The notes beneath the pieces were generated by a model. It saw nothing but the letters and a program-made list of their open reading frames with translations. It searched no databases and was not told the origin of the DNA. DNA of 64,000 bases from Minisyncoccota bacterium. Its GTDB lineage: Bacteria > Patescibacteriota > Minisyncoccia > Phycocordibacterales > CAIZLB01. Each line of letters starts with the position of its first letter. Position 1 is the stretch's first letter. Location of the stretch: NCBI GenBank assembly GCA_021734945.1, contig JAIPIA010000001.1, forward strand, positions 4,465 to 68,464. Reading direction: 5' to 3'. A program made the position numbers and the translations under genes. Below are positions 45,124 to 63,506 of the stretch, piece after piece.

Positions 45124-45157
45124 AAAAAATCACCTTACTAAAAAGGTGATTTTTTGT
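45124..45157. terminator. bidirectional Rho-independent terminator
   Basis: atcacctt-actaaa-aaggtgat flanked by A6 and T5. Confidence 0.55.
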
Positions 45158-46024: not shown

Positions 46025-46029
46025 ATATT

Positions 46030-46752
46030 ATGGAAGAAAAAACACAAACAACTCAAAAAAATAATCTTGCAATGCCGATTGCTGTAGTGATTGCCGGAGC
46101 ACTCATCGCTGGTGCGGTTCTCTATGGTGGAGGCAAAACACCTACTGCTGGTCAGCCACAACAACAGGTAGCACAAAAGCAAACAGGTGATCTTGAAAAG
46201 ATGACGCCAGTTTCATCTAAAGACCACATCCGAGGTGACATAAATGCTCCTGTGAAAGTTGTTGAATATTCTGATACTGAATGTCCGTTCTGTAAGAGAT
46301 TCCAAACAAGCATGAATGAGGTAATGGATACGTATGGTAAAGAAGGGAAAGTAGCTTGGGTGTATCGACATTTTCCAATTGACCAGCTTCACTCAAAAGC
46401 ACGAAAAGAAGCTGTTGCTATGGAGTGTGCCAATGAATTAGGAGGAAATGACAAGTTCTGGGAGTATGCAGACCGTTTGTATGAAGTGACTCCTGCAAAC
46501 AACGGACTGGATTTAGCTGAACTTCCAAAGATTGCGGAATATGTCGGATTAGATAAGGCAAAATTTAGCACTTGTCTTGCAAGCACGAGATATGACAAAC
46601 ACATCCAAGATGAAGTAGAGAACGCACAGGCAACAGGTGGCAATGGAACGCCGTGGAGTATCGTGGTCGGAAAGGATGGTAAGAAATATCCTCTCTCTGG
46701 TGCACAGCCGATATCTGCTATTAAGCAACTTATTGACCTCGCATCTAAATAG
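46030..46752 (+). CDS. DsbA-family thiol:disulfide oxidoreductase (paralog 2)
   Basis: CPFC active site (VKVVEYSDTECPFCKRF). AWVYRHFPIDQLHSKARKEA...ECANELGG is nearly identical in pattern to 27238..27981. Confidence 0.75.
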   Translation: MEEKTQTTQKNNLAMPIAVVIAGALIAGAVLYGGGKTPTAGQPQQQVAQKQTGDLEKMTPVSSKDHIRGDINAPVKVVEYSDTECPFCKRFQTSMNEVMDTYGKEGKVAWVYRHFPIDQLHSKARKEAVAMECANELGGNDKFWEYADRLYEVTPANNGLDLAELPKIAEYVGLDKAKFSTCLASTRYDKHIQDEVENAQATGGNGTPWSIVVGKDGKKYPLSGAQPISAIKQLIDLASK

Positions 46753-46754
46753 CC

Positions 46755-47300
46755 ATGATTCTCAATGCTTTACAAACAGTATTTCGGAAACCTGCCTACG
46801 GGATTCTTGCACTTTTCGTAAGTGCGTCGGCGTTTGTTCTTGCCGTATGGCTCTCAAACATCCGACTGGTTGCGGGCGTAGTCATTTCACCCGATGTTCC
46901 TTTGTTAAGTAAGATTGAATTACCACTGAGTCTCTTGGGTTCGATTGGAACTAATTTCACATTGTTGTCCGCCTCTTACACGGTCTTAATCTCGATTCTT
47001 TTTGGAATATATATCGCAATGATGACATATTTCCTTAAACGTCGAATCAAGGATGTTGCTCAAGGAGGAATCGCTACGGGATTCTTGGGTGTAGTAAGCG
47101 GAGTCTTGGGTGTTGGATGCGCCGCTTGCGGTTCGTTTCTCCTCACAAGCCTTACGCTGTTCGGTGCAGGAGGAGTGCTGACATTCCTACCGCTCGGTGG
47201 AAGTGAATTTGGAATCATTGGAGTAATCTTGCTTGGTCTTGCCGTCTATATGACTGCAAAGAAAATTCAAGACCCTCAGGTATGTAACATTCAGAATTAA
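46755..47300 (+). CDS. hypothetical polytopic membrane protein with an intramembrane CxxC (GCAACGS); candidate redox partner
   Basis: 181 aa, 4-5 TM helices. Cys pair inside a hydrophobic segment. Sits between dsbA and dsbB. Confidence 0.45.
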   Translation: MILNALQTVFRKPAYGILALFVSASAFVLAVWLSNIRLVAGVVISPDVPLLSKIELPLSLLGSIGTNFTLLSASYTVLISILFGIYIAMMTYFLKRRIKDVAQGGIATGFLGVVSGVLGVGCAACGSFLLTSLTLFGAGGVLTFLPLGGSEFGIIGVILLGLAVYMTAKKIQDPQVCNIQN

Positions 47301-47305
47301 AAGTT

Positions 47306-47749
47306 ATGAAAAAATTAATTAACAAAATATCTGTCGAAACGATTCACTACGCAATCCTGCTTCAGGCGGGTATTGCAATGGCTGGAAGCCTATTCTTCAG
47401 CGAGGTAATGGCTTTACCGCCGTGCGTGCTGTGCTGGTATCAGCGTATCGCCATGTATCCGATAGTGATACTGACAACCATCGGAATTATCCGAAACGAT
47501 AGAAAGACATACATCTCAGTCCTCGCACTCGCTATTCCTGGTCTTCTAATATCGATCTATCATAATCTCCTATATTGGAAAATACTTCCAGAAAGTGTTG
47601 CTCCGTGTACGCTTGGAATATCTTGCACAACGAAGTTCTTTGAGTGGTTTGGATTTATAACCATTCCATTTATGGCACTTATGGCGTTCACTATTATTAC
47701 GATACTTGGACTTATTAGCTTAAAGAAAAATACATATGAAAAATCTTAA
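47306..47749 (+). CDS. dsbB: disulfide bond formation protein B (DsbB/BdbC family)
   Basis: 147 aa, 4 TM helices. First periplasmic loop carries PPCVLCWYQR (CxxC). Second Cys pair CTLGISC. Confidence 0.75.
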   Translation: MKKLINKISVETIHYAILLQAGIAMAGSLFFSEVMALPPCVLCWYQRIAMYPIVILTTIGIIRNDRKTYISVLALAIPGLLISIYHNLLYWKILPESVAPCTLGISCTTKFFEWFGFITIPFMALMAFTIITILGLISLKKNTYEKS

Positions 47750-48389
47750 AATTATTATCGGTATATTCGCACTTATCGTCGTTGTCTTTCTGATTGCAAA
47801 AGGAGGCTACAAAAAGTCTGAAGACACGGCGGAACGAGCAAACATCACTCAGTCTTCCGCACTTGAAATCAGAGCAAATGACTGGGTGTTGGGAACGAGT
47901 ACTGCAAAGGTCACCATCGTCGAGTATCTAGACTTCGAGTGTGAAGCTTGTGGTGCGTATTACCCAATTATTACAAAGATCAAAGAGGAGTACAAGGACG
48001 ATGTGCGACTTGTCATCCGATACTTCCCATTGCCAGGACACAAAAATTCTAGAACTGCGGCGCACGCAGTCGAATCAGCTGGAAAGCAAGGAAAGTTCTT
48101 CGAAATGTACAACATCCTATTTGCCAAGCAGTCTGAGTGGGGCGAACAGCAAATGGCAAATCAAGACCAGTTTGAGAAATATGCTCTGGAAGCTGGTGTG
48201 AATATTGAACAGTGGAAAAAGGATGTGACGAGTGATGAGGTGAAGAATCGAGTTGAAGAGAGCTACAAAGAAGCAGTGAGTCTCAATCTACAAGGGACAC
48301 CCTCATTCTTTCTCAATGGAAAGAGAATTCAAAATCCACAAGGGTATGAAGCCTTCAAGAAATTAATCGAAGATGCACTTAAAAATTAA
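47736..48389 (+). CDS. DsbA-family thiol:disulfide oxidoreductase (paralog 3, CEAC active site)
   Basis: VTIVEYLDFECEACGAYYP, thioredoxin fold. Translationally coupled to dsbB by a 14-nt overlap. Confidence 0.75.
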   Translation: MKNLKIIIGIFALIVVVFLIAKGGYKKSEDTAERANITQSSALEIRANDWVLGTSTAKVTIVEYLDFECEACGAYYPIITKIKEEYKDDVRLVIRYFPLPGHKNSRTAAHAVESAGKQGKFFEMYNILFAKQSEWGEQQMANQDQFEKYALEAGVNIEQWKKDVTSDEVKNRVEESYKEAVSLNLQGTPSFFLNGKRIQNPQGYEAFKKLIEDALKN

Positions 48390-50569: not shown

Positions 50570-51757
50570 ATGCGAAAAAAGATACTGGTAGCCACTGTCC
50601 TCGGATTGATGGTGATTGTACCCATAATCAGTCTGAAAGTGACAGGTTTAGAGTCAATAAAAGATACAAATCAAGATATTGTGGTCGCTAAGTCACTGAG
50701 CGATCTTCCTGTTGGCGAAGTTAAGGAGTATCAAGTACAGAAGGGTGATACTTTTGCCGGTGTCATGACCAATATGGGTATTCAATATGACGAAGCTCTT
50801 GCCATCATGAACTCTTCAAAAGATACTTTTGATTTCACTAAAATAAATGCTGGAAAGTTCTTGAAGTTTGTGTTTGTTAACGAAGCTTTTGCAGCGATGG
50901 AATATCCGCTCAACAGCGACACTGTCATTCATGTTAAAAGAGAAGATGATTCTTTCAAGATAACTGAGGAAGATATTCCGTACAATATTGAGATGACGAC
51001 AGCTAAGGGCACAATTACTGATTCTTTGTTTGTTGCGGCTCAGGATGTTGGAGTTGAGGATAAGGTTACGTTAAAACTTGCAGATATATTTTCTAGCGAC
51101 ATAGACTTTGCTACTGATATCCAAGACGGCGATTCGTTCTCTGTCGTGTATGAAAAGAGAACGTTAGATGGCAAGCCTGCCAGTGCGGGAAAAGTGCTTG
51201 GTGCAAAATTTACAAATGACGGTACAACTTACACCGCTTTTCGTTACAATGATGGATTCTATAATGAAGACGGAGAGTCACTCACTCGTCAATTTCTCAA
51301 ATCTCCACTCAACTATGCTCGTATAAGTTCGGGATTCAGTTTTAAGCGAACAAATCCAGTGACTAAACAGGTTACTCCTCATCGTGCTATTGATTACGCC
51401 GCATCTGCAGGTACTCCTGTTATTGCAACTGCTGATGGAACGGTCTCTGTTGCTGGTTCAAAAGGAGGTCTGGGAATAACGGTAGAGTTAAAGCATGGCG
51501 AGTATCTTACGCAATACGCTCATCTCTCAGATATTGCGGACGGTATTAAAAAGGGCGTCGATGTAAAACAAGGAGACATTGTCGGCTACGTAGGTTCAAC
51601 AGGCATTTCAACTGGTCCACATTTGCAGTATGCAATGTTTAAGAATGGTAACCCTATCAACCCATTAGATACGGATTTCCCAAGAGGAGAAGCTTTGAGT
51701 GATTCTGAAAAACCTAATTTTGATTCTGTAAAAAATAAATTACTAGGTCTTATCTAG
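50570..51757 (+). CDS. M23-family metallopeptidase (LytM/lysostaphin-like), secreted
   Basis: HRAIDYAASAGTPVIATADG, HGEYLTQYAHLS, GYVGSTGISTGPHLQYAM (HxxxD ... HxH motifs). Signal anchor. Confidence 0.8.
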   Translation: MRKKILVATVLGLMVIVPIISLKVTGLESIKDTNQDIVVAKSLSDLPVGEVKEYQVQKGDTFAGVMTNMGIQYDEALAIMNSSKDTFDFTKINAGKFLKFVFVNEAFAAMEYPLNSDTVIHVKREDDSFKITEEDIPYNIEMTTAKGTITDSLFVAAQDVGVEDKVTLKLADIFSSDIDFATDIQDGDSFSVVYEKRTLDGKPASAGKVLGAKFTNDGTTYTAFRYNDGFYNEDGESLTRQFLKSPLNYARISSGFSFKRTNPVTKQVTPHRAIDYAASAGTPVIATADGTVSVAGSKGGLGITVELKHGEYLTQYAHLSDIADGIKKGVDVKQGDIVGYVGSTGISTGPHLQYAMFKNGNPINPLDTDFPRGEALSDSEKPNFDSVKNKLLGLI

Positions 51758-53070
51758 TTGCTGAGTGATAGCACCTTATCCTTAAGTGTCAGTTTACTTT
51801 TTAGGTGACTCAGTAGTTCTCGCTTTTCGTATAGAGGTCTCTTTCTTAGAATGTGCTTGGCGTAGTTGCGTATATCTATATCTTTTATTTTTACTTTCTC
51901 TTTGACTTCTTTTCCTAGTACTGATTCTTGAAATTCATTATGAGCTTCTATTTCAGCTCTAATTCTGTCTTTCATTCCGATTTCATCTAGTGATATCACA
52001 TCAAGTACATTTGCTAATTGTTCTATCAAGTCTTCTTCTCGTACATACCCGCATTGGCAATTTTTATCCTTAAATTTAGTGCATCCATAGTAGACGTAGC
52101 GATTTGTCGTTCCGTCTTTAAGTTTCTTGAATTTCTCGTCAGCGGTTATGCCTGATCCACATAGTCCGCAGGTAATCATCTTGGTAAAGGCGAACTCCTT
52201 ATCCTGAGTCCTTGTTAGGTGATCGTTGCTTATCTTATCCTGCACTTGGTTATATAAATCTTTCGTGATGATCGGCTCGTGCTTTCCGACATACCATTGT
52301 CCGCTTCCTTTCGGGTACTCAAATTCGCCGTAGTAGAAAGTGCTTTTGAGAATTATGTACACATTACTCAGTGTCAGTGGCTTTCCGTGCTTTGTCTTGA
52401 ATCGTATGTCCTCAGCTAACCACTTGAAGAGCTTCCGTCCAGACCATCCGTCGTATGCTACTTTCTCGAACATCTGTTTAATCACATGAGCTCTTTGCTC
52501 ATCGGGCATCACCTCACACTTTCTGTTCCTGTCAGAGTGGCTCAGATAACCCGTTGGGGGAACTGATGGCCATAATCCCATTTCGCATCTCGCTCGAAGT
52601 CCTCGCTTTACGTTCACCATCTTGTTGTCGTTCTCCAGTTTCGCTTGGCTTCCCAAAATCATCAGAAGGAATTTCTCATTTGGATTGTTTGTGAACTTCT
52701 GTCCGTAAGTGCGGATTTCGTGCAGAAGCTTCTGATCCATCAGGTCTACTACCGACCCAAGGTCACCAGCATTTCTGCTTAATCGGTCGGGTTCCCATGT
52801 CAGGATTCCGTTAAATTTTCCTTGTCTTATTTCACTGATCAGCTCGTTATATACAGGTCTTTGTCCAACCTCTTTTGATGAGTGCGATTCTCGCTTTATT
52901 TCGACTATTTCTAAACCCTCTCGCTCGGCGAGACTTATCATCTCTTTAACCTGCGATTCTATTGATAATGCTTGTTTGTCTTCTTGCTCTGTTGATTTGC
53001 GAGCATAGAGGCAGTACTTAATCGGTATGACCTCCTCAGGCTTCTCTGGTTGCTTGTTTTCTATCTTCAT
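51754..53070 (-). CDS. large serine recombinase (resolvase/invertase catalytic domain, recombinase domain and zinc ribbon); probable integrase of the downstream island
   Basis: N-terminal YARKSTEQED...SIESQ catalytic Ser motif, DRLSRN, C-terminal CGLCGSG...YYGC zinc ribbon. 438 aa. Confidence 0.85.
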   Translation of the reverse strand: MKIENKQPEKPEEVIPIKYCLYARKSTEQEDKQALSIESQVKEMISLAEREGLEIVEIKRESHSSKEVGQRPVYNELISEIRQGKFNGILTWEPDRLSRNAGDLGSVVDLMDQKLLHEIRTYGQKFTNNPNEKFLLMILGSQAKLENDNKMVNVKRGLRARCEMGLWPSVPPTGYLSHSDRNRKCEVMPDEQRAHVIKQMFEKVAYDGWSGRKLFKWLAEDIRFKTKHGKPLTLSNVYIILKSTFYYGEFEYPKGSGQWYVGKHEPIITKDLYNQVQDKISNDHLTRTQDKEFAFTKMITCGLCGSGITADEKFKKLKDGTTNRYVYYGCTKFKDKNCQCGYVREEDLIEQLANVLDVISLDEIGMKDRIRAEIEAHNEFQESVLGKEVKEKVKIKDIDIRNYAKHILRKRPLYEKRELLSHLKSKLTLKDKVLSLSN

Positions 53071-53169
53071 ACCTACATTGATGACGCTGATTGCTCTAGG
53101 AGTCTAGAGCGTCCTAGACTGGCTAAGTCGGTAACTTTTTAGGCTCAAAATCTTTCAAAATTAGCATTT

Positions 53170-56100
53170 TTGTTGTATGATTTGTTGCAAATATACACCA
53201 TGAGTGCCTCAAAATTTAAATTTTTAAAAGATGCTCCTATTGGAAAAGAATCCCAAGGTTTTTTTGATTTCTATCATAAAAATATAGCCCCAGCATTAAA
53301 GACAATTGTTGAAAATGATTCATGTGTTCATACTGTTGGTTTATTTGGGAAATGGGGTAGCGGAAAAAGTACTATTATCAAACTACTTAAAGAGGGTGGA
53401 GTTGAGGATGCGACCATCGTAGAATTCGACTGTTGGAAATATGAAAAGGATTCACTGAGAAGACAGTTGCTTTTACAGATCGCTAAAGATCTTGGTGTGA
53501 GTAGAAAGAATATCGATGAACTAGAAAAAGAGCTTTATTTTTCTTTGAGCGAAACTATAAATGAAAAAGTATCAATTTCTTGGGGATATCTAAAGAAAGT
53601 GGCACTTATTTCTTTCGCTTTTCTTCTGCCGGTAGGTTTTATAACATGGCAAATATTTCCTGATGTTGCTACACAATGGAAACTTTGGGTTGGCACTAGT
53701 TTTTCTCTAGTCTTATCCATTGCATTGTTAGTAGAGAAGGTGTTGGGTGATGATTTCAAAAAAATTATAATGGTCTCACCAATAACTGCCTCAAAAGCCC
53801 AACTCAGCTCCCCAGAACAGTTTGAGCGTTCTTTTATAAAGATATTAAAAACTACAAAAATCGATAAACAAAAAATTATTATTGTTATTGATAACCTTGA
53901 TCGTGTTGAATCGAAGGTAGCAACTGAGGTTTTGGCAACTCTCAAAACATTTTTAGAGATAAGTGAAGATAATTTGGGAAAAAAGAAGGTGATATTTCTT
54001 GTTCCGTGCGACTTTGATGCGATTAAAAAATCTGCTCCAAGTGCTGAGTTAGCGGATGAATTTTTAAGAAAGATTTTTAATGTAGTGATTTGGACACCTG
54101 AGTTCATCGATGTCGATATTCGAACATTTATAAAAGAACAAATAAGTCAGACTGGCGATATCAAAACTCACCTTGATGAAGAAGATGTAATTTTGGTCAT
54201 TGATTCCGCCTTTGCTAATAGCCCCAGAGAAATAAAACAATTTATAAACAATCTCATTTCTTCACTGATTGTTGCTTCTGAAACGGAAGTAAAAGATATT
54301 GTAGAAAAGAATGTTGCTTATATGGCAAAAGTACTTGTACTCATGCATAAATATCCAAAGGCATTTCAGAATCTAAAAAAGCTTTGGTATGCTCCTGAGG
54401 AAATTATTAATACTTATGAAGAGGTTCTCATAAAACATGAAAAAGAGGAATTTAACGAAGGCTTCAAAAATTTCATGCTGAGCACAAGCCGGATCACAGT
54501 ACTAGATGCTGAACCTTTCATTTATTTAAAGAAGCCTGTTGTATCTAATCGATTAACTAATGCAGACCCCATCCGACTTAGCCTTATTGAAGCAAAAGAG
54601 ACGGAGGCAAAAGACTTGGTGCAATCTGAGACTGACAAAGTTGCCCTTGTTGAGTTCATTATATCTATTTTGAATAAGTACCAGAACCAACCCGAAATAC
54701 TGAAGAACGTATTTATTACGCAACTTTCGATATTTAAAGAACTCAATATTTCAATTACAAAAAATTATTTAAACAAAGTAGGATCTCTTTTGGACGGTAA
54801 GGTATGGCCATATTTTCAAGATCTAAAGACAGACTTGATTTTTAGTTTTATTATCGCAGATGCTCAATTAGAACAGAATTTAAAGAAAAACATCCTAGAG
54901 CGGTATGTCTTGGCTTTAACTTCTACAGAAGAGTTTAAGAATTTTCAAAAAATAGAAATAGCAAAATTGATAATTAAAAGTTTGATTGAACATCAAAATC
55001 TGCTTACACCTGATCAAAAAATTAAGTTTGCACAGTCAATTGAACAAATATATACAGGTAAAGAAGACGTGATTGAATTATTTGTAAAAGCTGATGACCG
55101 TGGGCAGTTAATAACTAAGAAGACATTAGAGCAAGTAATAACAGGTAGTACTTTAGAGAATTTCTCTCTTAGGAAGGATCTATTCGTTAGCTTTCAGAAA
55201 TTGATTTCACTAAGAAAACTATTTTCTTTAATCTACGTTAAATTATCAGAATTATTGTCTCAACATAATACAAAACAGCCAGCTTTCGGTGAAGAAAAGG
55301 AACAGTATTTAAAACAGGTTCTTGAGCTAATATCCAAATATAAAGATGACCTTGCTCAGGTTCCAAAACCTGACGTAATTGAACTTGTAAGGTTGAATAT
55401 ACAAACGTTTAATAATATTAGCTCTTGGGATCAGCGGATTACGATTATCAATATCCTACAGCACTTACAGAGTATTGCAGATGATGGTCAAAAAGCGGAG
55501 ATAGGGTCTTTACTGAGTCAGTTTATACAGAATGCGACACCTGCGACTGTTCAAAAAATGTTTGCTTATTGGAAAATAACTTACATTCAATCTCTTATTA
55601 CAAAATTATTGACGCAATTACAACCGAGAATATCTTCAGATAAGATTTTTGCAAAAGTTATTTATGATTTTGCATCAACTGAGACCAGATTGGCAATATT
55701 AAAGTATCTTATTACTAACGAACATGATGCAACTATCGACTTTATCGGAACTCTTGCTGAAGGTGATTTTAATCGGGTTGAGGTAGTAAAAATGTTCTTG
55801 GATAAAGCTAAAACACTTCAAGCTAGCGATCGTGTAAGAATATATGATTTCATTTCTGAAAAAATTAGTATAAATGATGAGGTCGCTATAAAAGACCTTG
55901 TTGTAGAGCAAATCCGAGAATTACTTAATCAAGATGAACAAAATGTTTCCAAGGTTGGTTTTGATTTCTTTTGTAAGTCAGATTTTCTCGGGGAAGCTAA
56001 AAAGCGAGATGCTATCATAAAACCCGCGCTTGAATATCTTAGACAAGCTGGAAAAACTATAACTGAACAAAATAGTTACACGCTAAAAGCCATAGCCTCT

Positions 56101-56421
56101 TTTTTCAATAAACTACAGGAGACACCGCAAAAAGATTTTGTGTACTCTCTATTCAATATGTTGAGACCTGATAGAAATATGCAAACTATTGAAACTAGTC
56201 TTGAGAATTTGTTACTTGTTAAACCAGCTTTTGGCACATACGAGAAAGATTACAAAGATTTACTTGAGTCCCTAAAGAATTGGACTCAAGAAAACACAAA
56301 AACAAAGGTAATAGAGGCCATTGTTAGTCTTAAATCATTAGGTAATTTAAGTACCGAAGAAAAAGACTTTTGGAACTCAGTTGATGAGTTACTACCCAAA
56401 AAAGGAGAATCAGAAGTTTAA
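53170..56421 (+). CDS. KAP-family P-loop NTPase with TM helices inserted in the NTPase domain (Tmn-like); start possibly at 53200
   Basis: Walker A GLFGKWGSGKST, FDCWKYEKD, two hydrophobic helices (LISFAFLLPVGFITW, GTSFSLVLSIALLV) between Walker A and Walker B IIIVIDNLDR, KAP motif NSPREIKQFINNL. About 650-aa alpha-helical C-terminal region. Confidence 0.8.
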   Translation: MLYDLLQIYTMSASKFKFLKDAPIGKESQGFFDFYHKNIAPALKTIVENDSCVHTVGLFGKWGSGKSTIIKLLKEGGVEDATIVEFDCWKYEKDSLRRQLLLQIAKDLGVSRKNIDELEKELYFSLSETINEKVSISWGYLKKVALISFAFLLPVGFITWQIFPDVATQWKLWVGTSFSLVLSIALLVEKVLGDDFKKIIMVSPITASKAQLSSPEQFERSFIKILKTTKIDKQKIIIVIDNLDRVESKVATEVLATLKTFLEISEDNLGKKKVIFLVPCDFDAIKKSAPSAELADEFLRKIFNVVIWTPEFIDVDIRTFIKEQISQTGDIKTHLDEEDVILVIDSAFANSPREIKQFINNLISSLIVASETEVKDIVEKNVAYMAKVLVLMHKYPKAFQNLKKLWYAPEEIINTYEEVLIKHEKEEFNEGFKNFMLSTSRITVLDAEPFIYLKKPVVSNRLTNADPIRLSLIEAKETEAKDLVQSETDKVALVEFIISILNKYQNQPEILKNVFITQLSIFKELNISITKNYLNKVGSLLDGKVWPYFQDLKTDLIFSFIIADAQLEQNLKKNILERYVLALTSTEEFKNFQKIEIAKLIIKSLIEHQNLLTPDQKIKFAQSIEQIYTGKEDVIELFVKADDRGQLITKKTLEQVITGSTLENFSLRKDLFVSFQKLISLRKLFSLIYVKLSELLSQHNTKQPAFGEEKEQYLKQVLELISKYKDDLAQVPKPDVIELVRLNIQTFNNISSWDQRITIINILQHLQSIADDGQKAEIGSLLSQFIQNATPATVQKMFAYWKITYIQSLITKLLTQLQPRISSDKIFAKVIYDFASTETRLAILKYLITNEHDATIDFIGTLAEGDFNRVEVVKMFLDKAKTLQASDRVRIYDFISEKISINDEVAIKDLVVEQIRELLNQDEQNVSKVGFDFFCKSDFLGEAKKRDAIIKPALEYLRQAGKTITEQNSYTLKAIASFFNKLQETPQKDFVYSLFNMLRPDRNMQTIETSLENLLLVKPAFGTYEKDYKDLLESLKNWTQENTKTKVIEAIVSLKSLGNLSTEEKDFWNSVDELLPKKGESEV

Positions 56422-56513
56422 AATTAGACCTAATTCCCTTACTGGGATACCTGTAGGTAACTTTATTTTTTCTTTCTACACATTTTATCTGATTCAAGCT
56501 AACATGTAGATTA

Positions 56514-57335
56514 ATGGCAAAGAAGATTTTAGCTTACATAAAACAAAAACCTCACTTTTCACACAAAGATTTTGTACTGTATCTTGGTGATTCTACTGAT
56601 ATTCTCAACTCACTTCCTGAAGGTTCAATAGATATGATTTTTGCAGATCCTCCGTACATGCTTTCAAACGGAGGCTTTACTGTTCATGCTGGAAAAATGG
56701 TAAGTGTCGACAAAGGAAACTGGGACAAGAGTAAGGGATTTGATGAGGATTATGCTTTTCACAAAAGATGGTTGGAAGCGTGTCATAGGGTTTTAAAACC
56801 ACATGGCACCATCTGGGTTAGTGGCACCTATCACTCTATCTATCAATGTGGTCATGCAATTCAATCAATTGGCTTCCATGTCTTAAACGATATTACTTGG
56901 TTTAAACCAAACGCATCACCAAACCTTAGTTGCCGTTTCTTTACCGCAAGTCACGAGACGATTCTTTGGGCTAGGAAACATAAGAAAGCAAAACACACTT
57001 TCAATTACGATTTGATGAAAAATGGTGAATGGGCAGAAGATTTTATAAAGAAGCCTAATTTACAAATGCGTTCAGTGTGGGCAGTTAATCCTCCAAAGAA
57101 AGAAGAGAAGAAATTTACAAAGCACCCAACACAAAAACCCCTTTCACTTCTTGAGAGAATTGTCTTAGCTAGTACTAATAAGGGAGACATTGTACTCGAC
57201 CCATTTACTGGAAGTTCAACAACAGGAATCGCCGCGAAAAAGCACGGACGAAAGTTTATCGGTATTGATACTGAGGAGAAGTACTTAGATCTTTCTCAAA
57301 AACGCTTTCAAGATTTAGTCGGGGCTGGTAATTAA
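56514..57335 (+). CDS. beta-class N6-adenine/N4-cytosine DNA methyltransferase (DpnA/M.HinfI-like)
   Basis: Motif IV IFADPPY precedes motif I LDPFTGSSTTGIAAKKHGRKFIGID (beta permutation). Also TKHPTQKPLSLLERI. Confidence 0.85.
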   Translation: MAKKILAYIKQKPHFSHKDFVLYLGDSTDILNSLPEGSIDMIFADPPYMLSNGGFTVHAGKMVSVDKGNWDKSKGFDEDYAFHKRWLEACHRVLKPHGTIWVSGTYHSIYQCGHAIQSIGFHVLNDITWFKPNASPNLSCRFFTASHETILWARKHKKAKHTFNYDLMKNGEWAEDFIKKPNLQMRSVWAVNPPKKEEKKFTKHPTQKPLSLLERIVLASTNKGDIVLDPFTGSSTTGIAAKKHGRKFIGIDTEEKYLDLSQKRFQDLVGAGN

Positions 57336-58173
57336 CTATTACCACTTCGGATATTTTTCCACGTTTATCAGATTTTGAATTAATCATTCTATTGGCGTAT
57401 ACAGGAATCTGTTTATATCCAGAATATATTTCTTGAATAAAAGGTGCACTTGAATTGCTGAGCATTACATATACACCTTTTTTGTCGAGTTCAATAAATA
57501 AGTCTCGAAGCTTTATTTGGTCATCTTTAGAAAAAGAATCTTTACTGTAACTAGTAAAACTGGATGTCTCGGAAAGTGGGTGATACGGCGGATCAAAATA
57601 TACAAAATCTCCAGCTTTAGCATTCTTTACAGCATCAACAAATGAACCGCTCGTTATTTTAGCATTTGAAAGTATTTTAGAAACTGATCGCAGGTTTTCC
57701 TCGTCTACAATTTTTGGATTCTTGTAACTACCAATCGGTACATTGAATCCACCTTTTGAATTTTCTCGATACACACCATTAAATGCTGTCTTATTGAAGA
57801 AGAGGAAGTAGAGACTCTTATCAAAGTCTTCATGAGATAATGAATTATATCTTTCCCGTAATGCATAATAAACCTCTTTGCGAGCAATCTCGTCTTTTTT
57901 GAGAAAATCTTCCTCAAGTTTCTTAAGAGACTTTATCAATCCCTCTACATCATTCTTTATGTGAATATAAGTCTGAGCAAGTGTTTTATTTATATCGTTG
58001 ATATGTGCCTTTTTAGGATTAATTGAAAAAAATACCGCACCTCCACCGATAAAGGGTTCAAAGTATGAATTAAATTCTTTCGGGAAAAGACTCTCGAACT
58101 GAGCAAGAAGTTGTCCCTTTCCACCTACCCATTTTAGGAATGGTTTTGCTTTTTTAGTGTTATTTAACTTCAC
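57256..58173 (-). CDS. alpha-class Dam-family N6-adenine DNA methyltransferase (DpnM/GATC-type)
   Basis: PFLKWVGGKGQLL, motif I YFEPFIGGGAVFF, INDIN, motif IV VYFDPPYHP. The 3' 80 nt overlap the convergent beta-methyltransferase gene. Confidence 0.85.
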   Translation of the reverse strand: MKLNNTKKAKPFLKWVGGKGQLLAQFESLFPKEFNSYFEPFIGGGAVFFSINPKKAHINDINKTLAQTYIHIKNDVEGLIKSLKKLEEDFLKKDEIARKEVYYALRERYNSLSHEDFDKSLYFLFFNKTAFNGVYRENSKGGFNVPIGSYKNPKIVDEENLRSVSKILSNAKITSGSFVDAVKNAKAGDFVYFDPPYHPLSETSSFTSYSKDSFSKDDQIKLRDLFIELDKKGVYVMLSNSSAPFIQEIYSGYKQIPVYANRMINSKSDKRGKISEVVIVNYQPRLNLESVFEKDLSTSPQYQYR

Positions 58174-58248
58174 GGTTCCATTTTATCATTTTGGAATCAA
58201 TAAGCCTATATCATTGTTATTGGACTGATTTTGTGATTAAATTGAATC

Positions 58249-58773
58249 ATGAAAATAGGAGGGATTGGAGGTGCTAATACAAAATCAGGGCTCCATTTTG
58301 AAGGAAGGGTTGATTTCCTTGAGGTTCTTAAGACTGTGTCTGGATACGAAGTAAAGGAAGATGGATCAATCTTATTTCAAGGCAAGGTGGTTGCTCTCAA
58401 CCTTCGAAAGAGTCGACTCTACAAATACCTTGAAAGCAAGGGTGTAAACCATAAAGAAATTCTATCAAAGAAGCTTCTACCTGATGATGCGATCCTGATT
58501 CTTGGCACTAATGCATTTTATGTAATTGAAATTAAGTTTCAGAGTGTCGCAGGATCGGTAGATGAAAAATTACAGACATGTCATTTTAAAAAACGACAGT
58601 ATGAAAAGCTAATGGATTCACTCGGTGTAAAAGTTGAGTATATTTATATTCTAAGTGAGTGGTTCCAAGCACCTGCATACAAAGATGTACTCGCATATAT
58701 CAAGGAGGTTGACTGCGATTATTTCTTTGAAGAAATCACACTAAATCGACTAGGTCTTCCGTCTCCAAAATAA
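58249..58773 (+). CDS. candidate type II restriction endonuclease (PD-(D/E)xK fold), 174 aa
   Basis: LPDDAILILGTNAFYVIEIKFQ gives a textbook PD-x(13)-EIK signature. Adjacent to the two methyltransferases. Confidence 0.4.
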   Translation: MKIGGIGGANTKSGLHFEGRVDFLEVLKTVSGYEVKEDGSILFQGKVVALNLRKSRLYKYLESKGVNHKEILSKKLLPDDAILILGTNAFYVIEIKFQSVAGSVDEKLQTCHFKKRQYEKLMDSLGVKVEYIYILSEWFQAPAYKDVLAYIKEVDCDYFFEEITLNRLGLPSPK

Positions 58774-59340
58774 TTATCTGAAGCCTGGCATCGCTGACTG
58801 GAGCACTTCGGTATAATGTTTGTTTCCATCGATATAATCTCTCAGTATTAATAGAAGATTTTTAAACATATATGCTCCTGGGTTTATTTTCTCGTTTTTA
58901 CAGAACAGCTCAATCATTATTGCTACATAGTCCAAAGAAAGTGTGTAGTCTTGTTCGATGTGTGCATATCTTGTCGTAATTTCATTGATAGTTTCAAGTT
59001 GATATTTATTTCTGTCTTCAACAGATATAAATGGTGATGTACGTTCGTAGAAATCGATATAGTACTGAACTATAGATCGTACATCATCTCGGTACTGCGG
59101 AATTTTTAACAATAAATCTACCACCCAAAAAGTGTGAGTTGGTGGAGTCATTACTTTACTAGCTCCAGGCACGAGAATTTTTATAACAAAGTCTATGTCT
59201 GGTCTCGTGCCTCGATTACCTTGGAATAATCCAATCAAGGTTCCGTCACGAGTTGCATATGTTTTAAAGGCGACGAGGCGAGGTCTCAGCTGTCCGAGGT
59301 CAGTTCCATTATAGTATTTTGAATTATAGATGTGTGGCAT
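58774..59340 (-). CDS. hypothetical protein (188 aa); possible second R-M or defense component
   Basis: Tail-to-tail with the PD-(D/E)xK gene, with abutting stop codons. No recognised motif. Confidence 0.35.
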   Translation of the reverse strand: MPHIYNSKYYNGTDLGQLRPRLVAFKTYATRDGTLIGLFQGNRGTRPDIDFVIKILVPGASKVMTPPTHTFWVVDLLLKIPQYRDDVRSIVQYYIDFYERTSPFISVEDRNKYQLETINEITTRYAHIEQDYTLSLDYVAIMIELFCKNEKINPGAYMFKNLLLILRDYIDGNKHYTEVLQSAMPGFR

Positions 59341-59510
59341 TAGGTCAATTATAGCAAAAAGTAGACTGTTGGTAACCCGAGCTTCGCAAGGCTCTATATC
59401 TAAGCTAGAGTCTAGATAGATAGCTCTGTTTTTGCTATCATGTACTTATACAACAAAGACCTAACCCCTTAGAAAACGCTTAGTTTCCTAAGGATATGGT
59501 CGGAATAATA

Positions 59511-59680
59511 AAACCGCTACAGTATAGAAGACTCCTCGTCAGAGTCACTGTAGCGGTCGCGTACCCGAAAGGGTATGTGGGTCTGATCGAAAGATTGGAT
59601 CACAATGGCGGGGAGTCTTCTGTCTCACGACTCAAGGCTTCTTGCTAATTACCAGCATTAAGTCAAAACCGCTACAGTGA
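59511..59680 (+). repeat. GC-rich structured element bounded by 13-bp direct repeats (aaaccgctacagt) with nested inverted repeats
   Basis: The direct repeat sits at 59511-59523 and 59666-59678, with an inverted copy actgtagcggt at 59547-59557. gaagactcc (59527) pairs with ggagtcttc (59612). tacccGAAAgggta is a tetraloop hairpin. GC content is far above the flanks. Confidence 0.4.
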
Positions 59681-60150
59681 CTCAAAAAAATAATGATCTG
59701 GATAAGATCAATAAAAATATCTACATTAAAACCTATGTGGTCAGTATTGTTTCGTACCTGATTCTCGTAGGACTCATCTCAACCTTTCTTGAAAGTCCGT
59801 TTATTCAAACACTTTTAGTTACAGCAGGAGCTCTTCTTGTTTGGACTATATTCAAATCGATCATTGGTTCAGTTACATTCAATTTGTTCTTTAGAAATGA
59901 TCTAATTGAAAAGTACCTACACGAGTTTAAGGCGAATGATTTTCCTAAACCACAGGATTATGAAATGGAAGAGGTTGAATCGTACTTACAAACAATTGCG
60001 ATGAATCCTGATAATCATCCAAAAAATATTGTTGCCACAGGAATGCTTAGCGAATTTGGGCACGCCCGTACTCAAGGAAGTATGCTCGTCTTACTCAGAC
60101 TGACAAAGGTTATGAAAAAGGCTTTGAGGAAATATAGCTACTTCAGTTAA
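59677..60150 (+). CDS. hypothetical membrane protein (GTG start inside the direct repeat; start uncertain)
   Basis: 157-aa ORF with two TM helices. Confidence 0.3.
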   Translation: MTQKNNDLDKINKNIYIKTYVVSIVSYLILVGLISTFLESPFIQTLLVTAGALLVWTIFKSIIGSVTFNLFFRNDLIEKYLHEFKANDFPKPQDYEMEEVESYLQTIAMNPDNHPKNIVATGMLSEFGHARTQGSMLVLLRLTKVMKKALRKYSYFS

Positions 60151-60550
60151 TAGGTTATCCACATTCGATATCTCAAAAACTCTATAAAGTAGCGTTATTT
60201 TGAAAGTGACAGAAATGAGTCTCAAAAAGACACTTGCAGTCTCATGATTTGTGATAAAATAATCACAGAAGCACTAAGACATCCCCCATATTGAAACGGC
60301 TGAGAATCAAATCAGCTAAGTCTATGCAATGTAGCCTAGATGGAAAACCCACAGAAACTATCTTCTGATAGTAGAATGACGCTGGTGACCATATCTGGCA
60401 ATAGAAATTTTTAACTCCAAAGGTTAAAGGTTCTATTGCTTGCAGGTCGACACAATAGACAAAAACCCGCCTTTGGTATTAAAGATAACTTTGATATCGT
60501 AGGCGGTTTTTTGTTGCTTCTAGATTACAAATTAATTATCTAGCAAGTAT

Positions 60551-61873
60551 ATGAACAAAGAAAATCTAAAGATTGTGTACGTCTCAATCTACAGCCTTGT
60601 CGCAAATGACAAGAATCCACGCAAATGGAGTGAGGAACAAAAGGAACAGCTCAAGGAAAGCATCAAACGATTCGGCAACGTCGATCCGATAATCGTGAAC
60701 ACACACGAGGAAAGGAAAAATATAATCGTCGGAGGACATTTTCGTGTGGAAGCGTGTAAGGAACTGGGATACAAGAATATGCCAGTCGTATTCGTGAATC
60801 TCACACCAGAAAAAGAAGCAGAACTAAACCTTAGACTCAACCGCAATCAAGGAGAGTTTGATCTTGAGATGCTCGCTGAGTTCGACAGCTCAATGCTTCT
60901 TGATATTGGATTTACTTCAGAAGATATCGACGATATTTTTCCAACTGACAAAAATGAAGAGCAATTTGATCTACAAAAGGAATTGGATAAGCTCGATATC
61001 ACAGTCGAAGCCAAGAAAGGTGAAATATACGATCTCGATGGGTCACGACTTATGATTGGTGATTCTACAATCGAAGCAGATATGTTGAAACTCATAGGTG
61101 ACAACAAAGTGGACATGGTTCTTACAGATCCTCCATATATTCTTGATTATCTAAAAGGTAAAGGTCGTGGTAAAGATGGTCCGACTGTCGGGTTCGGTTC
61201 AAAGAAGAATCGCAGATATTTGGAGACTGATGTTTTACCTGAAAACTTCTCTGATCTATGGATGGCAAATGTCGCAAAGGTACAAAAACCAGACTTCTCG
61301 ATTATTATCTTTGAGAATCCTAAAAATCTACGAACCATATGGAATGCACTCGAGGTTCATTGGAAATACAGAAACACTATCACATGGCATGTACCAAATC
61401 GTATGCAGGGATTTTCTGCTTCAAACAAGTTCTTCAACAAGACAGATATCGCACTCGTTGGATCTTCAGGAGAAGTAAATCTCAATCTTGAACCAGAAGA
61501 AGGCTTGTTCCAAAACGAATATGAGAATGCAATATTTGCCACTTCAGGAAAACCTCACTTTGAGCCGTATGAGAAAGGAAAGAAAATCTGTCCGACAGAC
61601 TTCATATCTCATACCGCCGCAGATAAAAAGTCTTCAGGGCAAGAAATTATCTTCGGAACAAAACCAATTGAGCTCCTCATTCCATATCTGAAAGTACTCA
61701 CCAAGAGAAATGATCTCATTCTTGAACCATTCGGAGGAAGTGGAAGTACGCTCATCGCTTCAGTGAAGATGGGTCGCCGTTGCTTCATTATGGAAAAATC
61801 ACACGTATATGCAGAAGTCATTATGAACCGCTGGGAGAAAGAGACTGGTAAGAAGCGTAAGAAAATTAACTAG
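60551..61873 (+). CDS. ParB-like nuclease domain fused to a beta-class N6A/N4C DNA methyltransferase (phage/plasmid-type orphan methylase)
   Basis: N-terminal ParB/Srx fold (IVYVSIYSLVANDKNPRKW...IIVGGHFRVEACKELG). Then methyltransferase motif IV VLTDPPY and motif I LEPFGGSGSTLIAS. Confidence 0.8.
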   Translation: MNKENLKIVYVSIYSLVANDKNPRKWSEEQKEQLKESIKRFGNVDPIIVNTHEERKNIIVGGHFRVEACKELGYKNMPVVFVNLTPEKEAELNLRLNRNQGEFDLEMLAEFDSSMLLDIGFTSEDIDDIFPTDKNEEQFDLQKELDKLDITVEAKKGEIYDLDGSRLMIGDSTIEADMLKLIGDNKVDMVLTDPPYILDYLKGKGRGKDGPTVGFGSKKNRRYLETDVLPENFSDLWMANVAKVQKPDFSIIIFENPKNLRTIWNALEVHWKYRNTITWHVPNRMQGFSASNKFFNKTDIALVGSSGEVNLNLEPEEGLFQNEYENAIFATSGKPHFEPYEKGKKICPTDFISHTAADKKSSGQEIIFGTKPIELLIPYLKVLTKRNDLILEPFGGSGSTLIASVKMGRRCFIMEKSHVYAEVIMNRWEKETGKKRKKIN

Positions 61874-61875
61874 AT

Positions 61876-62262
61876 ATGGCAGTAGATCTAAAGATCAAGA
61901 AGCAAAAGGAAGTTCTGCTTGAGCATCTGCGTACTGTGCCGATTGTTGAAGTAGCTTGCAAGAAAGGAGGAATCTCCAGAGCTACTTTCTATCGCTGGTG
62001 TAGTGACGATGAAGAGTTCAAGACAGAAGTTGAGAACGCCAAGGTAGATGGTGTTGAGAACATAAACGATATGTCGGAAGCTCAACTCATTTCTCTCATC
62101 AGAGAGAAAAAGTATCAAGCTATAGCACTGTGGCTCAAGAACAATCACTATAGATTTATGTCGGAGGACAAGCAAAACCTCATCAGGAAAGTTCAAAAGA
62201 AAACCGAGCTTAATCTCCAACAGAAGGAGTTACTCAAAGAAGCCCTCAAACATTACAAATGA
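61876..62262 (+). CDS. terminase small-subunit-like HTH protein
   Basis: N-terminal HTH ACKKGGISRATFYRWCSDDEEF, typical of TerS and phage DNA-binding proteins. Overlaps the next gene via ATGA. Confidence 0.4.
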   Translation: MAVDLKIKKQKEVLLEHLRTVPIVEVACKKGGISRATFYRWCSDDEEFKTEVENAKVDGVENINDMSEAQLISLIREKKYQAIALWLKNNHYRFMSEDKQNLIRKVQKKTELNLQQKELLKEALKHYK

Positions 62263-63449
62263 AAAAACTATCTCCAGAAGTAATACAGGCAGTCATTAAT
62301 GACACTGCCGTGCGAACTGCACTCGTGTACCAAAATCACGAGGCATTTTGCAGTATCTACCTCAGGAGACATTTGAAATATGAGTTTGCTTGGTTCCATA
62401 AGGAGATGTTTCGGATTACCGAGTCATACCAACACAAGCTCAACGTATTCATGGCATTTAGAGGTTCAGGAAAGTCGACAATCCTGAACCTTTCTAATGT
62501 CCTGTGGAGTATTACAGGAAAGCATCAAAAGAAATTTGTAATAGTAGTAAGCAAGACTCGTGTTCAGTCACAATCTCATTTCGATAACATAAAGCAAGAA
62601 CTCGAAGAAAACGAATTACTCAAACATGACCTCGGTCCATTCCAAGCGACCAAGGAAGATTGGGGTGCATACACTATTGAAATACCAAAGTACGGAGCAA
62701 AGATTATGTGCATTGGAGCCAATCAAAACATACGAGGACTCAAGTATCGTGATCACCGTCCTGACCTAATTATCTGTGACGATATCGAGGATATAAACTC
62801 ATTTACTGACAGAGACCAAATCAAGACTCTCTATGACTGGTTTATGGGAGAACTCTGGTCTATCGGTGACGAAACTATAAATATTGTTGTTCTTGGAAAC
62901 TTGCTCAGCCCATCTTCAATCATGATTAAGTTGTACAAAGCTATTAAGAAAAAAGAAATGCCGGGCATATTCAAAGCGTATCCGCTTCTCGATGATTACA
63001 ATCGCATTCTATGGTCAGCAAAGTATCCTGATGCAAAGACTATTAAAGAAATTGAGCGAGGTTTGCCACGACCACGACGAGATGACTTATATACAATATT
63101 CTCTCGTGAATATTTGTTAGATATGTCCTTGGTTGATACTGATGAGATGCTAGAGAAGCACAAAACACCAATACGTGCTGGCGGAAAGACAGTAAAGAGT
63201 TTTGATATCTCTGCTCCAATGTGGGCTATTGGAACAGTGTGGTATTTTCCTGATGATTTAAGTAATTTCAATTTAGCCGTTGATGATCTGGATGGTTATC
63301 CACTTGAGAAATATATTGAAATTGAAAAGGAATATATTAAATTACAGCAAGAGAAGTATCCAAACTATCAGGTAAAGGTGAGAGGCAGTCAAGGTGAGTC
63401 ACGTGGGTTTGAGGATCACCCTGATAGACCGATGAGGTATAGGGGGTAG
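62259..63449 (+). CDS. terminase large-subunit-like ATPase (short; nuclease domain appears truncated or divergent)
   Basis: Walker A AFRGSGKST, Walker B LIICDDIED, with TerL-like spacing. Only 396 aa. Confidence 0.45.
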   Translation: MKKLSPEVIQAVINDTAVRTALVYQNHEAFCSIYLRRHLKYEFAWFHKEMFRITESYQHKLNVFMAFRGSGKSTILNLSNVLWSITGKHQKKFVIVVSKTRVQSQSHFDNIKQELEENELLKHDLGPFQATKEDWGAYTIEIPKYGAKIMCIGANQNIRGLKYRDHRPDLIICDDIEDINSFTDRDQIKTLYDWFMGELWSIGDETINIVVLGNLLSPSSIMIKLYKAIKKKEMPGIFKAYPLLDDYNRILWSAKYPDAKTIKEIERGLPRPRRDDLYTIFSREYLLDMSLVDTDEMLEKHKTPIRAGGKTVKSFDISAPMWAIGTVWYFPDDLSNFNLAVDDLDGYPLEKYIEIEKEYIKLQQEKYPNYQVKVRGSQGESRGFEDHPDRPMRYRG

Positions 63450-63476
63450 TCTGGTTTTTGACTTATTATTGTGTTC

Positions 63477-63506
63477 TTGCAATATACCCCCTAGGGGGTA
63501 TATAAT
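63477..63506 (+). promoter_or_regulatory. sigma70-like promoter with an embedded perfect 20-bp palindrome; predicted CsoR operator
   Basis: -35 TTGCAA (63477-63482), 18-nt spacer consisting of tataccccctagggggtata (63483-63502, a perfect palindrome), -10 TATAAT (63501-63506). csoR ATG at 63516. Confidence 0.5.

Follow-up and report, generated by a model that had tools for sequence, protein, structure and literature searches.

A probable recombinase-borne integrative element with defence cargo, terminase-type genes and a LOOT RNA in a Paceibacteria chromosome

The stretch of 64,000 nucleotides analysed here, which in its full length is called the window, is chromosomal DNA from a metagenome-assembled genome (MAG) of the Paceibacteria (Patescibacteria, candidate phyla radiation or CPR). 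Towards its right end, an island of 11.7 kb (~51745-63460) is located between the 3' end of an M23-peptidase gene and the promoter of csoR, the right neighbour, which starts at 63516. The island carries a large serine recombinase (LSR) gene, a KAP NTPase gene, a restriction-modification (R-M) system, a LOOT RNA, and a trio of genes for a ParB-methylase, a small terminase subunit-like protein (TerS) with a helix-turn-helix (HTH) and a short large terminase subunit (TerL). All of these genes had been named in a preliminary description of the sequence and were found where it had placed them; the LOOT RNA and two open reading frames (ORFs), named p188 and p157, had been overlooked, and the short TerL had been taken for a fragment, which it is not. 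The description had also reported that capsid and tail genes are missing, and profile scans indeed found no portal, capsid, tail, or lysis genes in the element or elsewhere in the window. In the following, L-numbers designate loci or contigs of relatives in the comparison set.

The recombinase gene (51754-53070, minus strand) encodes a protein of 438 amino acids of the Ccr/SprA type, whose predicted resolvase catalytic, C-terminal recombinase, and zinc-ribbon domains are those of a large serine recombinase. The corresponding Pfam matches are PF00239 (Resolvase, 1.1e-19, residues 21-165), PF07508 (Recombinase, 3e-14), and PF13408 (Zn_ribbon_recom, 7e-9), and the protein contains the catalytic motif YARKST with the nucleophilic serine (motif YARKSTEQEDKQALSIESQ). 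It matches the integrase family phrog_95 (3.5e-66) and aligns over ~390 residues (19-411) to PDB entry 9dxh, the SprA/YokA integrase of SPbeta (3e-15). Its best NCBIfam model is CcrB (9e-39), with a score of 133 bits that lies far below the cutoff of 900.

Relatives of the neighbouring M23 peptidase were searched and their contigs were then read for occupied and empty sites. An empty site was found in L297/L298 (M23 77% identical), where the order Dsb/SurA/M23 is followed after 60 bp by csoR-copA-HMA/DsbD-cupredoxin, and the window aligns to the empty site of L297 up to position 51742 and again from 63482. The island is thus a discrete 11.7-kb insertion at the M23/csoR site with the proposed boundaries. 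This agrees with the preliminary description, which had placed the right boundary near 63.45 kb and had seen in the locus a discrete, horizontally acquired island whose defence cargo is enclosed by an integrase on one side and terminase-type genes on the other. In L296 (M23 96% identical) the junction is the same as in the window. In L295 (M23 88%) another member of the family, oriented the other way round, fills the site, and its TerL of 494 amino acids abuts the M23 gene, and in L016/L019 csoR adjoins the recombinase end rather than the TerL end.

At the left junction (51742-51757), homology to the empty site ends at 51742 at the 3' end of the M23 gene, the M23 stop codon (51755-51757) overlaps the recombinase stop codon (51754-51756), and homology of the recombinase gene to L013 begins at 51775-51794. 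At the right junction (63442-63482), homology to the closest element (L011) stops at 63442 and that to L012 at 63459, before homology to the empty site of L297 resumes at 63482. A near-perfect palindrome, ATATACCCCCTAGGGGGTATAT, at 63484-63505 before csoR is conserved throughout the relatives and at the empty site as well. Presumably it is the CsoR operator, and it serves as landmark for the right junction, which lies 20-35 bp upstream of it. The distance from the gene end to this palindrome is 28 nt in the empty site versus 35 nt after the TerL stop codon in the window, which argues that the insertion took place at the extreme 3' end of the M23 gene, so that this gene now ends in element-proximal codons.

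The element belongs to a family that was traced by scans of one genome per GTDB species and of IMG/VR, with loci confirmed by tblastn. There are 240 confirmed loci in the species-representative genomes and 487 in IMG/VR, and the hosts come from several classes of Patescibacteria. When the neighbouring ORFs of 170 loci were clustered all against all, four ORF families were present in most of them (TerL, methylase, HTH, and recombinase), followed by a Zn-ribbon protein (33 loci) and a LexA/S24-type repressor (24 loci); no portal, capsid, tail, lysis, or replication family was conserved among these loci. The recurring neighbours of TerL are a ParB_N-methylase of ~440 amino acids, often accompanied by a second methylase, an HTH protein of ~128-140 amino acids, and a serine recombinase of ~440 amino acids. 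The LexA/S24-type repressor is found in more basal members, and some members have an HNH gene upstream of the packaging genes. This backbone is conserved family-wide and is under selection. In the open-access subset of the literature on terminase-recombinase elements of Patescibacteria/CPR and on TerL-bearing satellites, no description of such a family was found, and the family of capsid-less elements is apparently undescribed. More than 40 'viral' contigs of IMG/VR (L095-L138) are copies of the capsid-less element, presumably called viral because of their terminase, methylase, and integrase genes.

The preliminary description had held that conservation of these genes and their order in distant relatives would speak for an ancestral rather than a mobile origin. 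The order is in fact conserved in distant relatives, yet the contexts differ, a genome can hold up to three divergent copies, and an empty site exists, which together mark the conservation as that of a mobile-element family and not of an ancestral locus. A vertically inherited Paceibacteria defence locus that was deleted in the relatives lacking it would fit the gene order of the trio, which is kept in many relatives, and the adjacency of TerL and csoR in several of them. We give it a negligible probability since it is contradicted by the site comparisons: the spacing between M23 and csoR is intact in the empty site (28 versus 35 nt to the operator), the same site also holds a different member in reversed orientation (L295), and other members have different flanks (e.g., groES/groEL in L003). 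Moreover, several divergent copies can occur on one chromosome, as in a 1.3-Mb Peribacteria chromosome with three copies that are 65-68% identical, and the identities between the window and L005 are mosaic (methylase 87%, TerL 53%, HTH 49%). Such same-genome copies (in OZ246396.1 and others) were also considered for defining the ends of the element; being 65-70% identical, they are not recent duplicates and were uninformative. We regard it as very probable that the island is an LSR-borne integrative element of a conserved family with defence cargo.

The trio starts with a fusion of a ParB_N domain and an N6_N4 methylase (60551-61873, plus strand, 440 amino acids; PF02195 and PF01555, phrog_498 1e-75), which is present in 126 of the loci examined. 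The following gene (61876-62262, plus strand) encodes the TerS-like HTH protein of 128 amino acids and overlaps the TerL start by 4 nt. This protein matches TerS PHROGs with 1e-7 to 5e-6 and PF13022 with 7e-6 (26.6 bits, below the cutoff of 27.9); its structural model is all-helical (predicted local distance difference test, pLDDT, 85), and its top fold matches are the TerS rings 2ao9 and 3hef (Sf6 gp1) at non-significant E-values of 0.4-0.9. Across loci, the HTH gene is invariably adjacent to TerL. One source labels its homologues 'cytidylate kinase' or 'ACT domain protein'.

The last gene (62259-63449, plus strand) encodes a TerL-type packaging ATPase of 396 amino acids without a nuclease, which matches phrog_38 (1.3e-35) and NCBIfam termin_lrg_T7 (3e-14) and whose Walker A (FRGSGKST) and Walker B (LIICDD) motifs are invariant. 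The AlphaFold model has a pLDDT of 90, and the best PDB matches found by Foldseek are all TerL ATPase domains (T4 gp17, PhiV-1, D6E, and HK97 TerL, E 7e-8 to 2e-5). Hence, of the two terminase calls made in the preliminary description, TerL is borne out by hidden Markov models (HMMs) and fold, and TerS is borne out weakly. The window's TerL shares 100% identity with K9M11_00280, encoded on a 383-kb contig of a 'Candidatus Pacebacteria' assembly, and has more than 2000 relatives in the database, of which the nearest 60 are 335-454 amino acids long and lack Pfam Terminase_6C; more distant relatives have ~480-510 amino acids and possess that domain. An HMM of the nuclease domain, built from 86 full-length relatives, gave no match to the window's TerL. 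According to the alignment, the nuclease region is replaced by a conserved C-terminal extension of ~100 amino acids with the motifs F-E-I-S-A-P-M-W, D-D-x-D-G-Y-P, and D-R-P-x-R-Y, for which the model shows only a beta-hairpin and a helix.

With this HMM, the nuclease domain went undetected in 27 of the 121 complete TerLs of the family. A phylogeny of TerL had been proposed as a check, and in a neighbour-joining tree of the ATPase domain these 27 proteins form one clade plus one isolated truncation, which corresponds to two losses by parsimony. In the window's subclade, the ratio of nonsynonymous to synonymous substitution rates (dN/dS) is 0.02-0.07 for the ATPase domain and 0.09-0.18 for the C-terminal extension. 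The short TerL is therefore a derived form under strong purifying selection and not a fragment. Two further arrangements of TerL were observed in the family. Several loci (L064, L066, L081, L090, L112-L115) have two full-length TerL genes in tandem before the recombinase, each ~37-42% identical to the window's TerL. In L230, L212, and L201, the recombinase is followed by LOOT and then by HTH and methylase genes on the opposite strand. LOOT and HTH are ~830-980 bp apart, too little for a full TerL to fit in, none was found by tblastn, and these loci may be family members without any TerL.

The preliminary description had read the terminase genes as remnants and the locus as a degenerate prophage, that is, as a temperate phage that was stripped of its structural and lysis genes and whose leftovers persist by chance in a defence island. 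The order of ParB-methylase, TerS, and TerL, with which late operons of phages typically begin, together with the PHROG matches favours such an origin, and IMG/VR pipelines label such contigs as viral. Nevertheless, the same gene subset is kept in hundreds of loci of several classes, none of which has a portal or capsid gene, and such a recurring four-gene backbone without structural genes is not what random prophage decay would leave behind. TerL is strongly selected, its new C-terminus included, and the nuclease disappeared in what was essentially a single event, after which the clade diversified for a long time. In addition, true phages in the same scan share at most 35% TerL identity with the elements (no tree was built) and have the order TerS-TerL-x-(778-aa portal-like). 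The short TerL clade, the purifying selection, and the recurrence of the backbone thus largely refute the degenerate prophage, which is very unlikely.

The cargo is arranged in two cassettes. Cassette 1 consists of a KAP P-loop NTPase of 1083 amino acids (53170-56421, plus strand), which matches PF07693 (1.6e-26, 93.7 bits versus a cutoff of 20) and has weak matches to PifA/QatA in PADLOC and to QatA in NCBIfam; a KAP protein that is 32% identical to it occupies the corresponding slot in L018. Cassette 2 encodes an N6_N4 methylase of the CcrM/DpnA-like type (56514-57335, plus strand; PF01555 1.3e-64, 218 bits; PADLOC MTase_II 3e-101), a Dam-class (D12) adenine methylase (57256-58173, minus strand; PF02086 2.5e-67; TIGR00571 dam 3.7e-90, 302 bits, above cutoff), and a protein of 174 amino acids (58249-58773, plus strand) with a weak PD-(D/E)XK match. 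The 3' ends of the two convergent methylase genes overlap by 80 nt on opposite strands (57256-57335). As a Dam-class and a second N6_N4 methylase are both predicted, the pair has the composition of a DpnII/MboI-like two-methylase R-M system. The 174-aa protein accompanies the Dam gene in L022, is also present in L012, and is a putative restriction enzyme partnering the two methylases.

The ORF p188 (58774-59340, minus strand, 188 amino acids) is also part of the cargo; it has no family match in Pfam, PHROG, PADLOC, and NCBIfam scans and none of the other loci has a homolog of it. A variable slot separates LOOT from the methylase block and is taken in the window by p157, a predicted membrane protein of 157 amino acids (59677-60150, plus strand) found in six loci, and in relatives by the families f17, f44, and f45. 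When contigs were read, the cargo turned out to be unlike even among close relatives; the systems met in other loci are a Bub/ThiF ubiquitin-like system, an AAA_15/21 ATPase, ResIII/HEPN, type I R-M with DUF4435, CBASS with patatin/E1-E2/JAB, and Shedu. The cargo of the family is thus subject to rapid turnover.

The cassette boundaries are marked by the motif GTTAYCNAC, of which the window contains seven copies versus 2.3 expected, five of them within the element. Four of these five copies are positioned at gene-module boundaries and the fifth inside the TerL 3' region. Copy A (GTTACCGAC, 53127-53135) lies at the boundary of recombinase and KAP, copy B (GTTACCTAC, 56453-56461, minus strand) at that of KAP and R-M, and copy C (GTTACCAAC, 59368-59376, minus strand) at that of p188 and LOOT, 69 nt before the RNA. 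The three copies are direct, on the minus strand, and bracket both cargo cassettes. A variant (GTTATCCAC, 60154-60162, plus strand) stands at the boundary of p157 and the methylase, where the block that precedes the ParB-methylase begins, and its position is matched in L011, L013, L001, L003, and L096. In at least 22 of 35 element loci, the motif is found 62-79 nt upstream of LOOT on the opposite strand, and in independent metagenome loci it occupies this position in 15 of 34 cases versus 0 of 34 for a downstream control. A second copy is located ~65 nt upstream of the recombinase start across the family, and in L030, L040, and L098, in which LOOT and the recombinase are divergent neighbours, they are separated by one copy or a tandem of copies. 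This distribution suggests that the motif may be a site of cassette insertion or exchange, comparable to composite islands of the staphylococcal cassette chromosome (SCC); alternatively, it might be a regulatory operator.

Copy A is part of a conserved leader of the recombinase gene (CTAGACT...GCGTCAT, 53071-53139, minus strand), at which homology with relatives stops and the cargo starts. In ~25 loci, the leader (53071-53125 of the window, minus strand) has the form (G)GTCTGGACT or CTAGACT, 10-14 nt, and TGCGTCAT[TC]NAT, and it is often capable of forming a hairpin (GCTCTAG-ACTC-CTAGAGC in the window). The heptamer GACTCCT is common to the leader and to the P2b hairpin of LOOT. The leader could be an arm of an attachment (att) site, an operator, or an element of the 5' untranslated region.

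The features reviewed so far also bear on a different view of the element, according to which it would be an SCC-like cassette element that defends the cell and is moved by its recombinase in the way Ccr moves SCCmec. The trio itself would then act against phages, for instance as a terminase decoy poisoning the packaging motors or portals of phages, rather than serve the transfer of the element, and spread would occur by natural transformation or generalised transduction. Several observations are in line with it, namely the CcrB match of the recombinase, the choice of a conserved housekeeping gene's 3' end for insertion, the cassettes bounded by direct copies of a repeated motif, the loss of the nuclease from a strongly selected ATPase, and the constant setting among defence genes; the PilB/PilC type IV pilus genes of the window would be compatible with competence. 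However, most members keep a full TerL with its nuclease, some with an HNH gene upstream, which resembles a working packaging module. No PADLOC model matches the backbone trio, and we know of no experiment that ties a terminase decoy to defence. The S24 repressor of basal members furthermore suggests induction as in a temperate element. All in all, we consider this view unlikely.

Between the cargo and the methylase operon, the element contains a conserved non-coding backbone block of ~330 bp (59359-59693, plus strand), which is 78-95% identical across loci with differing flanking cargo. It includes the LOOT RNA (Rfam RF03000; 59446-59615, plus strand), a structured RNA (~165 nt) whose five to six helices are accompanied by two GAAA tetraloops. 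The Rfam match at 59458-59601 covers model positions 1-121 of 121 with 51.8 bits versus a gathering score of 46.4. The structure was transferred from the Rfam alignment, and covariance models were then built, with which LOOT of the window scores 146-169 bits. A model derived by RNAalifold (R1) had missed the main helix and was discarded in favour of the transferred structure. Covariation is strong among 13 homologues and again among 36: in the set of 36 sequences, 93.9% of the cells are paired versus 33-43% in slid controls, 39 of 42 pairs show compensatory (double) changes, and none of 500 shuffles scored as high.

LOOT derives from the screen of Weinberg et al. 2017 (PMC5737381). In the open-access subset of the literature, no paper was found that gives its function or genomic context, and LOOT has remained an orphan Rfam RNA. 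Its association with the element is apparent from both directions. The covariance model detected LOOT in 36 of 100 element loci, and a converse scan of a metagenome collection with a 17-mer from a LOOT loop retrieved 80 stretches, of which 38 contained a true LOOT. Of the 24 true-LOOT loci longer than 3.5 kb, 19 carry methylase, HTH, TerL, recombinase, or S24 genes, and in the others the RNA sits at a contig edge. As a scan seeded with LOOT alone lands in such elements, LOOT is a specific feature of the family. Its place is not constant: besides the arrangement of the window, it can follow the recombinase at 60-100 bp on the same strand, precede it by ~150-200 bp on the other strand, or lie upstream of the methylase. 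LOOT is also found together with full-length TerL. The LOOT sequences of the window and L011 are identical, though the DNA beyond TerL differs, which is weak evidence against a programming of the target by LOOT in the manner of a bridge RNA; this idea was dropped.

A further step would be to regard LOOT as an obligatory partner of the element's machinery, either as a part of the TerL motor that resembles packaging RNA (pRNA) or as an RNA cofactor or regulator of the recombinase, which would rearrange and capture cargo at the GTTACCNAC sites located at a fixed distance of ~68 nt from the RNA. We hold this to be distinctly unlikely. If true, the family would represent a new class of mobile elements, RNA-dependent and capsid-less, by which defence genes are carried around among Patescibacteria.

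Taken together, the island is probably an integrative element that resembles satellites or SCC, carries defence genes, and belongs to a conserved family. The following sequence of steps would account for the features described. The recombinase would insert and excise the element at the M23/csoR site, at which the insertion itself is observed, and would probably also make the inversions and cassette captures behind the varied module orders. Cargo cassettes may be gained or swapped at the motif-marked boundaries that are seen in the pattern of the locus. The TerS/TerL/methylase module might exploit the capsids of a helper phage or interfere with the helper's packaging, as satellites do. In the window's clade, the ATPase may depend on a nuclease supplied elsewhere (by the TerL of the helper or by the ParB_N domain), unless it serves as an interfering subunit; the loss of the nuclease from an ATPase under selection favours an interfering or helper-nuclease-dependent role. 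LOOT, whose association with the element is observed, may be its dedicated cofactor or regulator.

A number of points weigh against this interpretation. Attachment sequences, which the preliminary description had hoped to define by comparison with genomes lacking the insertion, were not definable despite the empty site, and flanking direct repeats, for which it had suggested looking, were not found at the outer junctions. Homology fades within ~15-40 bp on each side, and blastn-short comparisons of the junction, tRNA, LOOT, and recombinase-upstream segments yielded 7-10-mers at chance level; a fading homology without a long direct repeat is, on the other hand, the expected trace of an LSR with a 2-bp crossover. 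An excised circle was not found, as no whole-contig locus had terminal overlaps and no small contig was circular. The 9-mer motif is short, and seven copies were reached in 1 of 100 shuffles of the whole window. LOOT went undetected by the covariance model in about two thirds of the 100 family members. A replication module (primase, helicase, or Rep family), as is usual in classical satellites, is missing from the backbone, and L009 and L053 carry the trio without a recombinase within 10 kb. The assignment of the 128-aa HTH protein as TerS is weak but coherent, and a TerL lacking its nuclease is unable to cut concatemers alone. No helper phage was identified, and only distant phage TerL relatives appeared in the scan, and packaging of the element would be an assumption. 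The satellite comparison put forward in the preliminary description stands as the best, if putative, functional analogy, and a true helper-dependent satellite behaviour is possible, at somewhat less than even chances.

The wider setting of the element is chromosomal. The genes rpoB, rpoC, dnaG, rpoD, and that of a UvrD/PD-(D/E)XK helicase are located at 10-25 kb of the window, and those of HisRS, TruB, PilB/PilC, iPGM, enolase, and Dus at 25-44 kb. A megablast search with 51-64 kb against PLSDB plasmids and INPHARED phages gave no match. The left neighbour of the island is a redox/metal block with DUF305, two DsbA-like proteins, DsbB, a P-type ATPase, and the M23 peptidase. In the window, its part DUF305-DsbA-DsbB-DsbA (45653-48389) precedes the element; in L012 (TerL 90% identical), it is found between TerL and csoR (5245-7822). 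The position of the element relative to the DUF305-Dsb block therefore differs between the two genomes. At the far left (2930-9469), the window encodes a predicted surface protein of 2179 amino acids with five FN3 domains, a glycine-rich domain, Big_7/Ig domains, and a C-terminal peptidoglycan-binding domain, and in L009 a 2653-aa SpvB/YD-shell protein adjoins the element.

The recombinase has a tRNA-Gln gene on its left in the window as well as in L003, L013, and L021. In the window (44908-45135), this gene and ~150 bp downstream of it are 82-83% identical to L013, and the genes beyond differ. Several basal elements have tRNA-Ser or tRNA-Gln genes facing the recombinase end. The tRNA-Gln gene was considered as the attachment site of the window's element and was dropped, as the empty M23/csoR site puts the left junction at 51.75 kb; its neighbourhood may be a second integration hotspot or a preferred neighbourhood, separate from the junction of the window.

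Signs of further mobility were observed next to other members. In L009/L025, from another Paceibacteria genome, inverted repeats of 241 bp that are 98% identical (11227-11467 and 15594-15834) flank a segment of ~4.1 kb downstream of the short TerL, which encodes DUF1801, an HTH protein, Sacchrp_dh, and others. The independent assembly L010 joins ~11263 to ~15801 and lacks the segment, which points to an excisable or invertible cassette beside the element. In L005 (11053-13777, also in L006-L008), the short TerL is followed by TfoX_N and then by a different large serine recombinase (474-491 amino acids) that is accompanied by a rolling-circle Rep (REP_ORF2-G2P), a small integrated element stacked on the first.

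Patescibacteria account for a large share of bacterial diversity, have tiny genomes, and possess few recognised mobile elements and defence systems; to our knowledge, almost nothing is known about gene exchange among them. The family described here is present in hundreds of their genomes as an apparent vehicle of defence systems (R-M, KAP, CBASS, Bub, Shedu, and DISARM-like) and offers an integration hotspot (M23/csoR) together with modular cargo slots. The orphan RNA LOOT gains a genomic home and hence a testable function, and the natural series of nuclease-less yet selected TerLs bears on how satellites or defence modules subvert phage packaging. Virus-mining pipelines such as that of IMG/VR already mislabel these elements as viruses. 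Finally, the compact recombinase and its target site may be of interest for genome engineers.

Among the known systems, phage satellites come close to the element, including phage-inducible chromosomal islands (PICIs) with the Staphylococcus aureus pathogenicity islands (SaPIs), capsid-forming PICIs (cf-PICIs), P4-like elements, and PICI-like elements (PLEs). Like the element, they are integrated, ~10-15 kb in size, have an integrase at one end, and lack a full set of virion genes. They also carry packaging-specificity genes (TerS in PICIs, TerS and TerL in cf-PICIs), to which the TerS-like and TerL-type genes of the element may correspond, and anti-phage cargo in hotspots, and the repressor of basal members has its counterpart there. 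In contrast to satellites, the element uses an LSR instead of a tyrosine integrase and is devoid of primase/replicase, capsid-remodelling, and capsid genes, so that it has a TerL without a capsid, and in the window's clade this TerL has no nuclease. The ParB-methylase and the structured RNA in its backbone and the host phylum Patescibacteria are further differences.

With SCC elements (SCCmec and composite SCC islands of staphylococci), the element shares a putatively Ccr-type LSR, the use of a conserved housekeeping gene as target at its 3' end, modular cassettes between short direct repeats (here the internal GTTACCNAC copies), and the lack of its own transfer machinery. However, its target is the M23 peptidase/csoR region and not rlmH (orfX), it has a single recombinase gene, no outer direct repeats, and a Ccr similarity far below the curated cutoff. 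Its backbone consists of terminase-type genes, ParB-methylase, and LOOT instead of cch/polA-type genes, and its cargo serves defence and not resistance. The start of the late operon of temperate siphophages with an LSR (SPbeta, phiC31, and A118 types) is similar in the order and families of the trio and in the LSR architecture. Unlike in these phages, nothing follows the TerL of the element (no portal, head, tail, or lysis genes), and its TerL clade is separate (at most 35% identity).

Two further comparisons concern the RNA and are meant as analogies only. The motor of phi29 (gp16 and pRNA) likewise combines a nuclease-less ATPase of ~330-400 amino acids with a structured RNA of ~165-175 nt from the same element, and phi28 gp11 is among the fold matches of TerL. 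As differences, no sequence or structure relationship of LOOT to pRNA was apparent, LOOT also occurs with full-length TerL, and the element has no portal or capsid. The bridge (seek) RNA of IS110/IS1111 is, like LOOT, a structured non-coding RNA of ~150-180 nt directly upstream or downstream of a recombinase gene at the edge of a mobile element. The element's recombinase is, however, a classical LSR, and such enzymes recognise DNA through protein domains; identical LOOT sequences with different flanks beyond TerL in the window and L011 also speak against target programming. The element could prove categorically new if LOOT were a mechanistic partner of the recombinase or the ATPase. As it presents itself here, it is not a prophage; it works most like a satellite and an SCC cassette at once and fully fits neither class.

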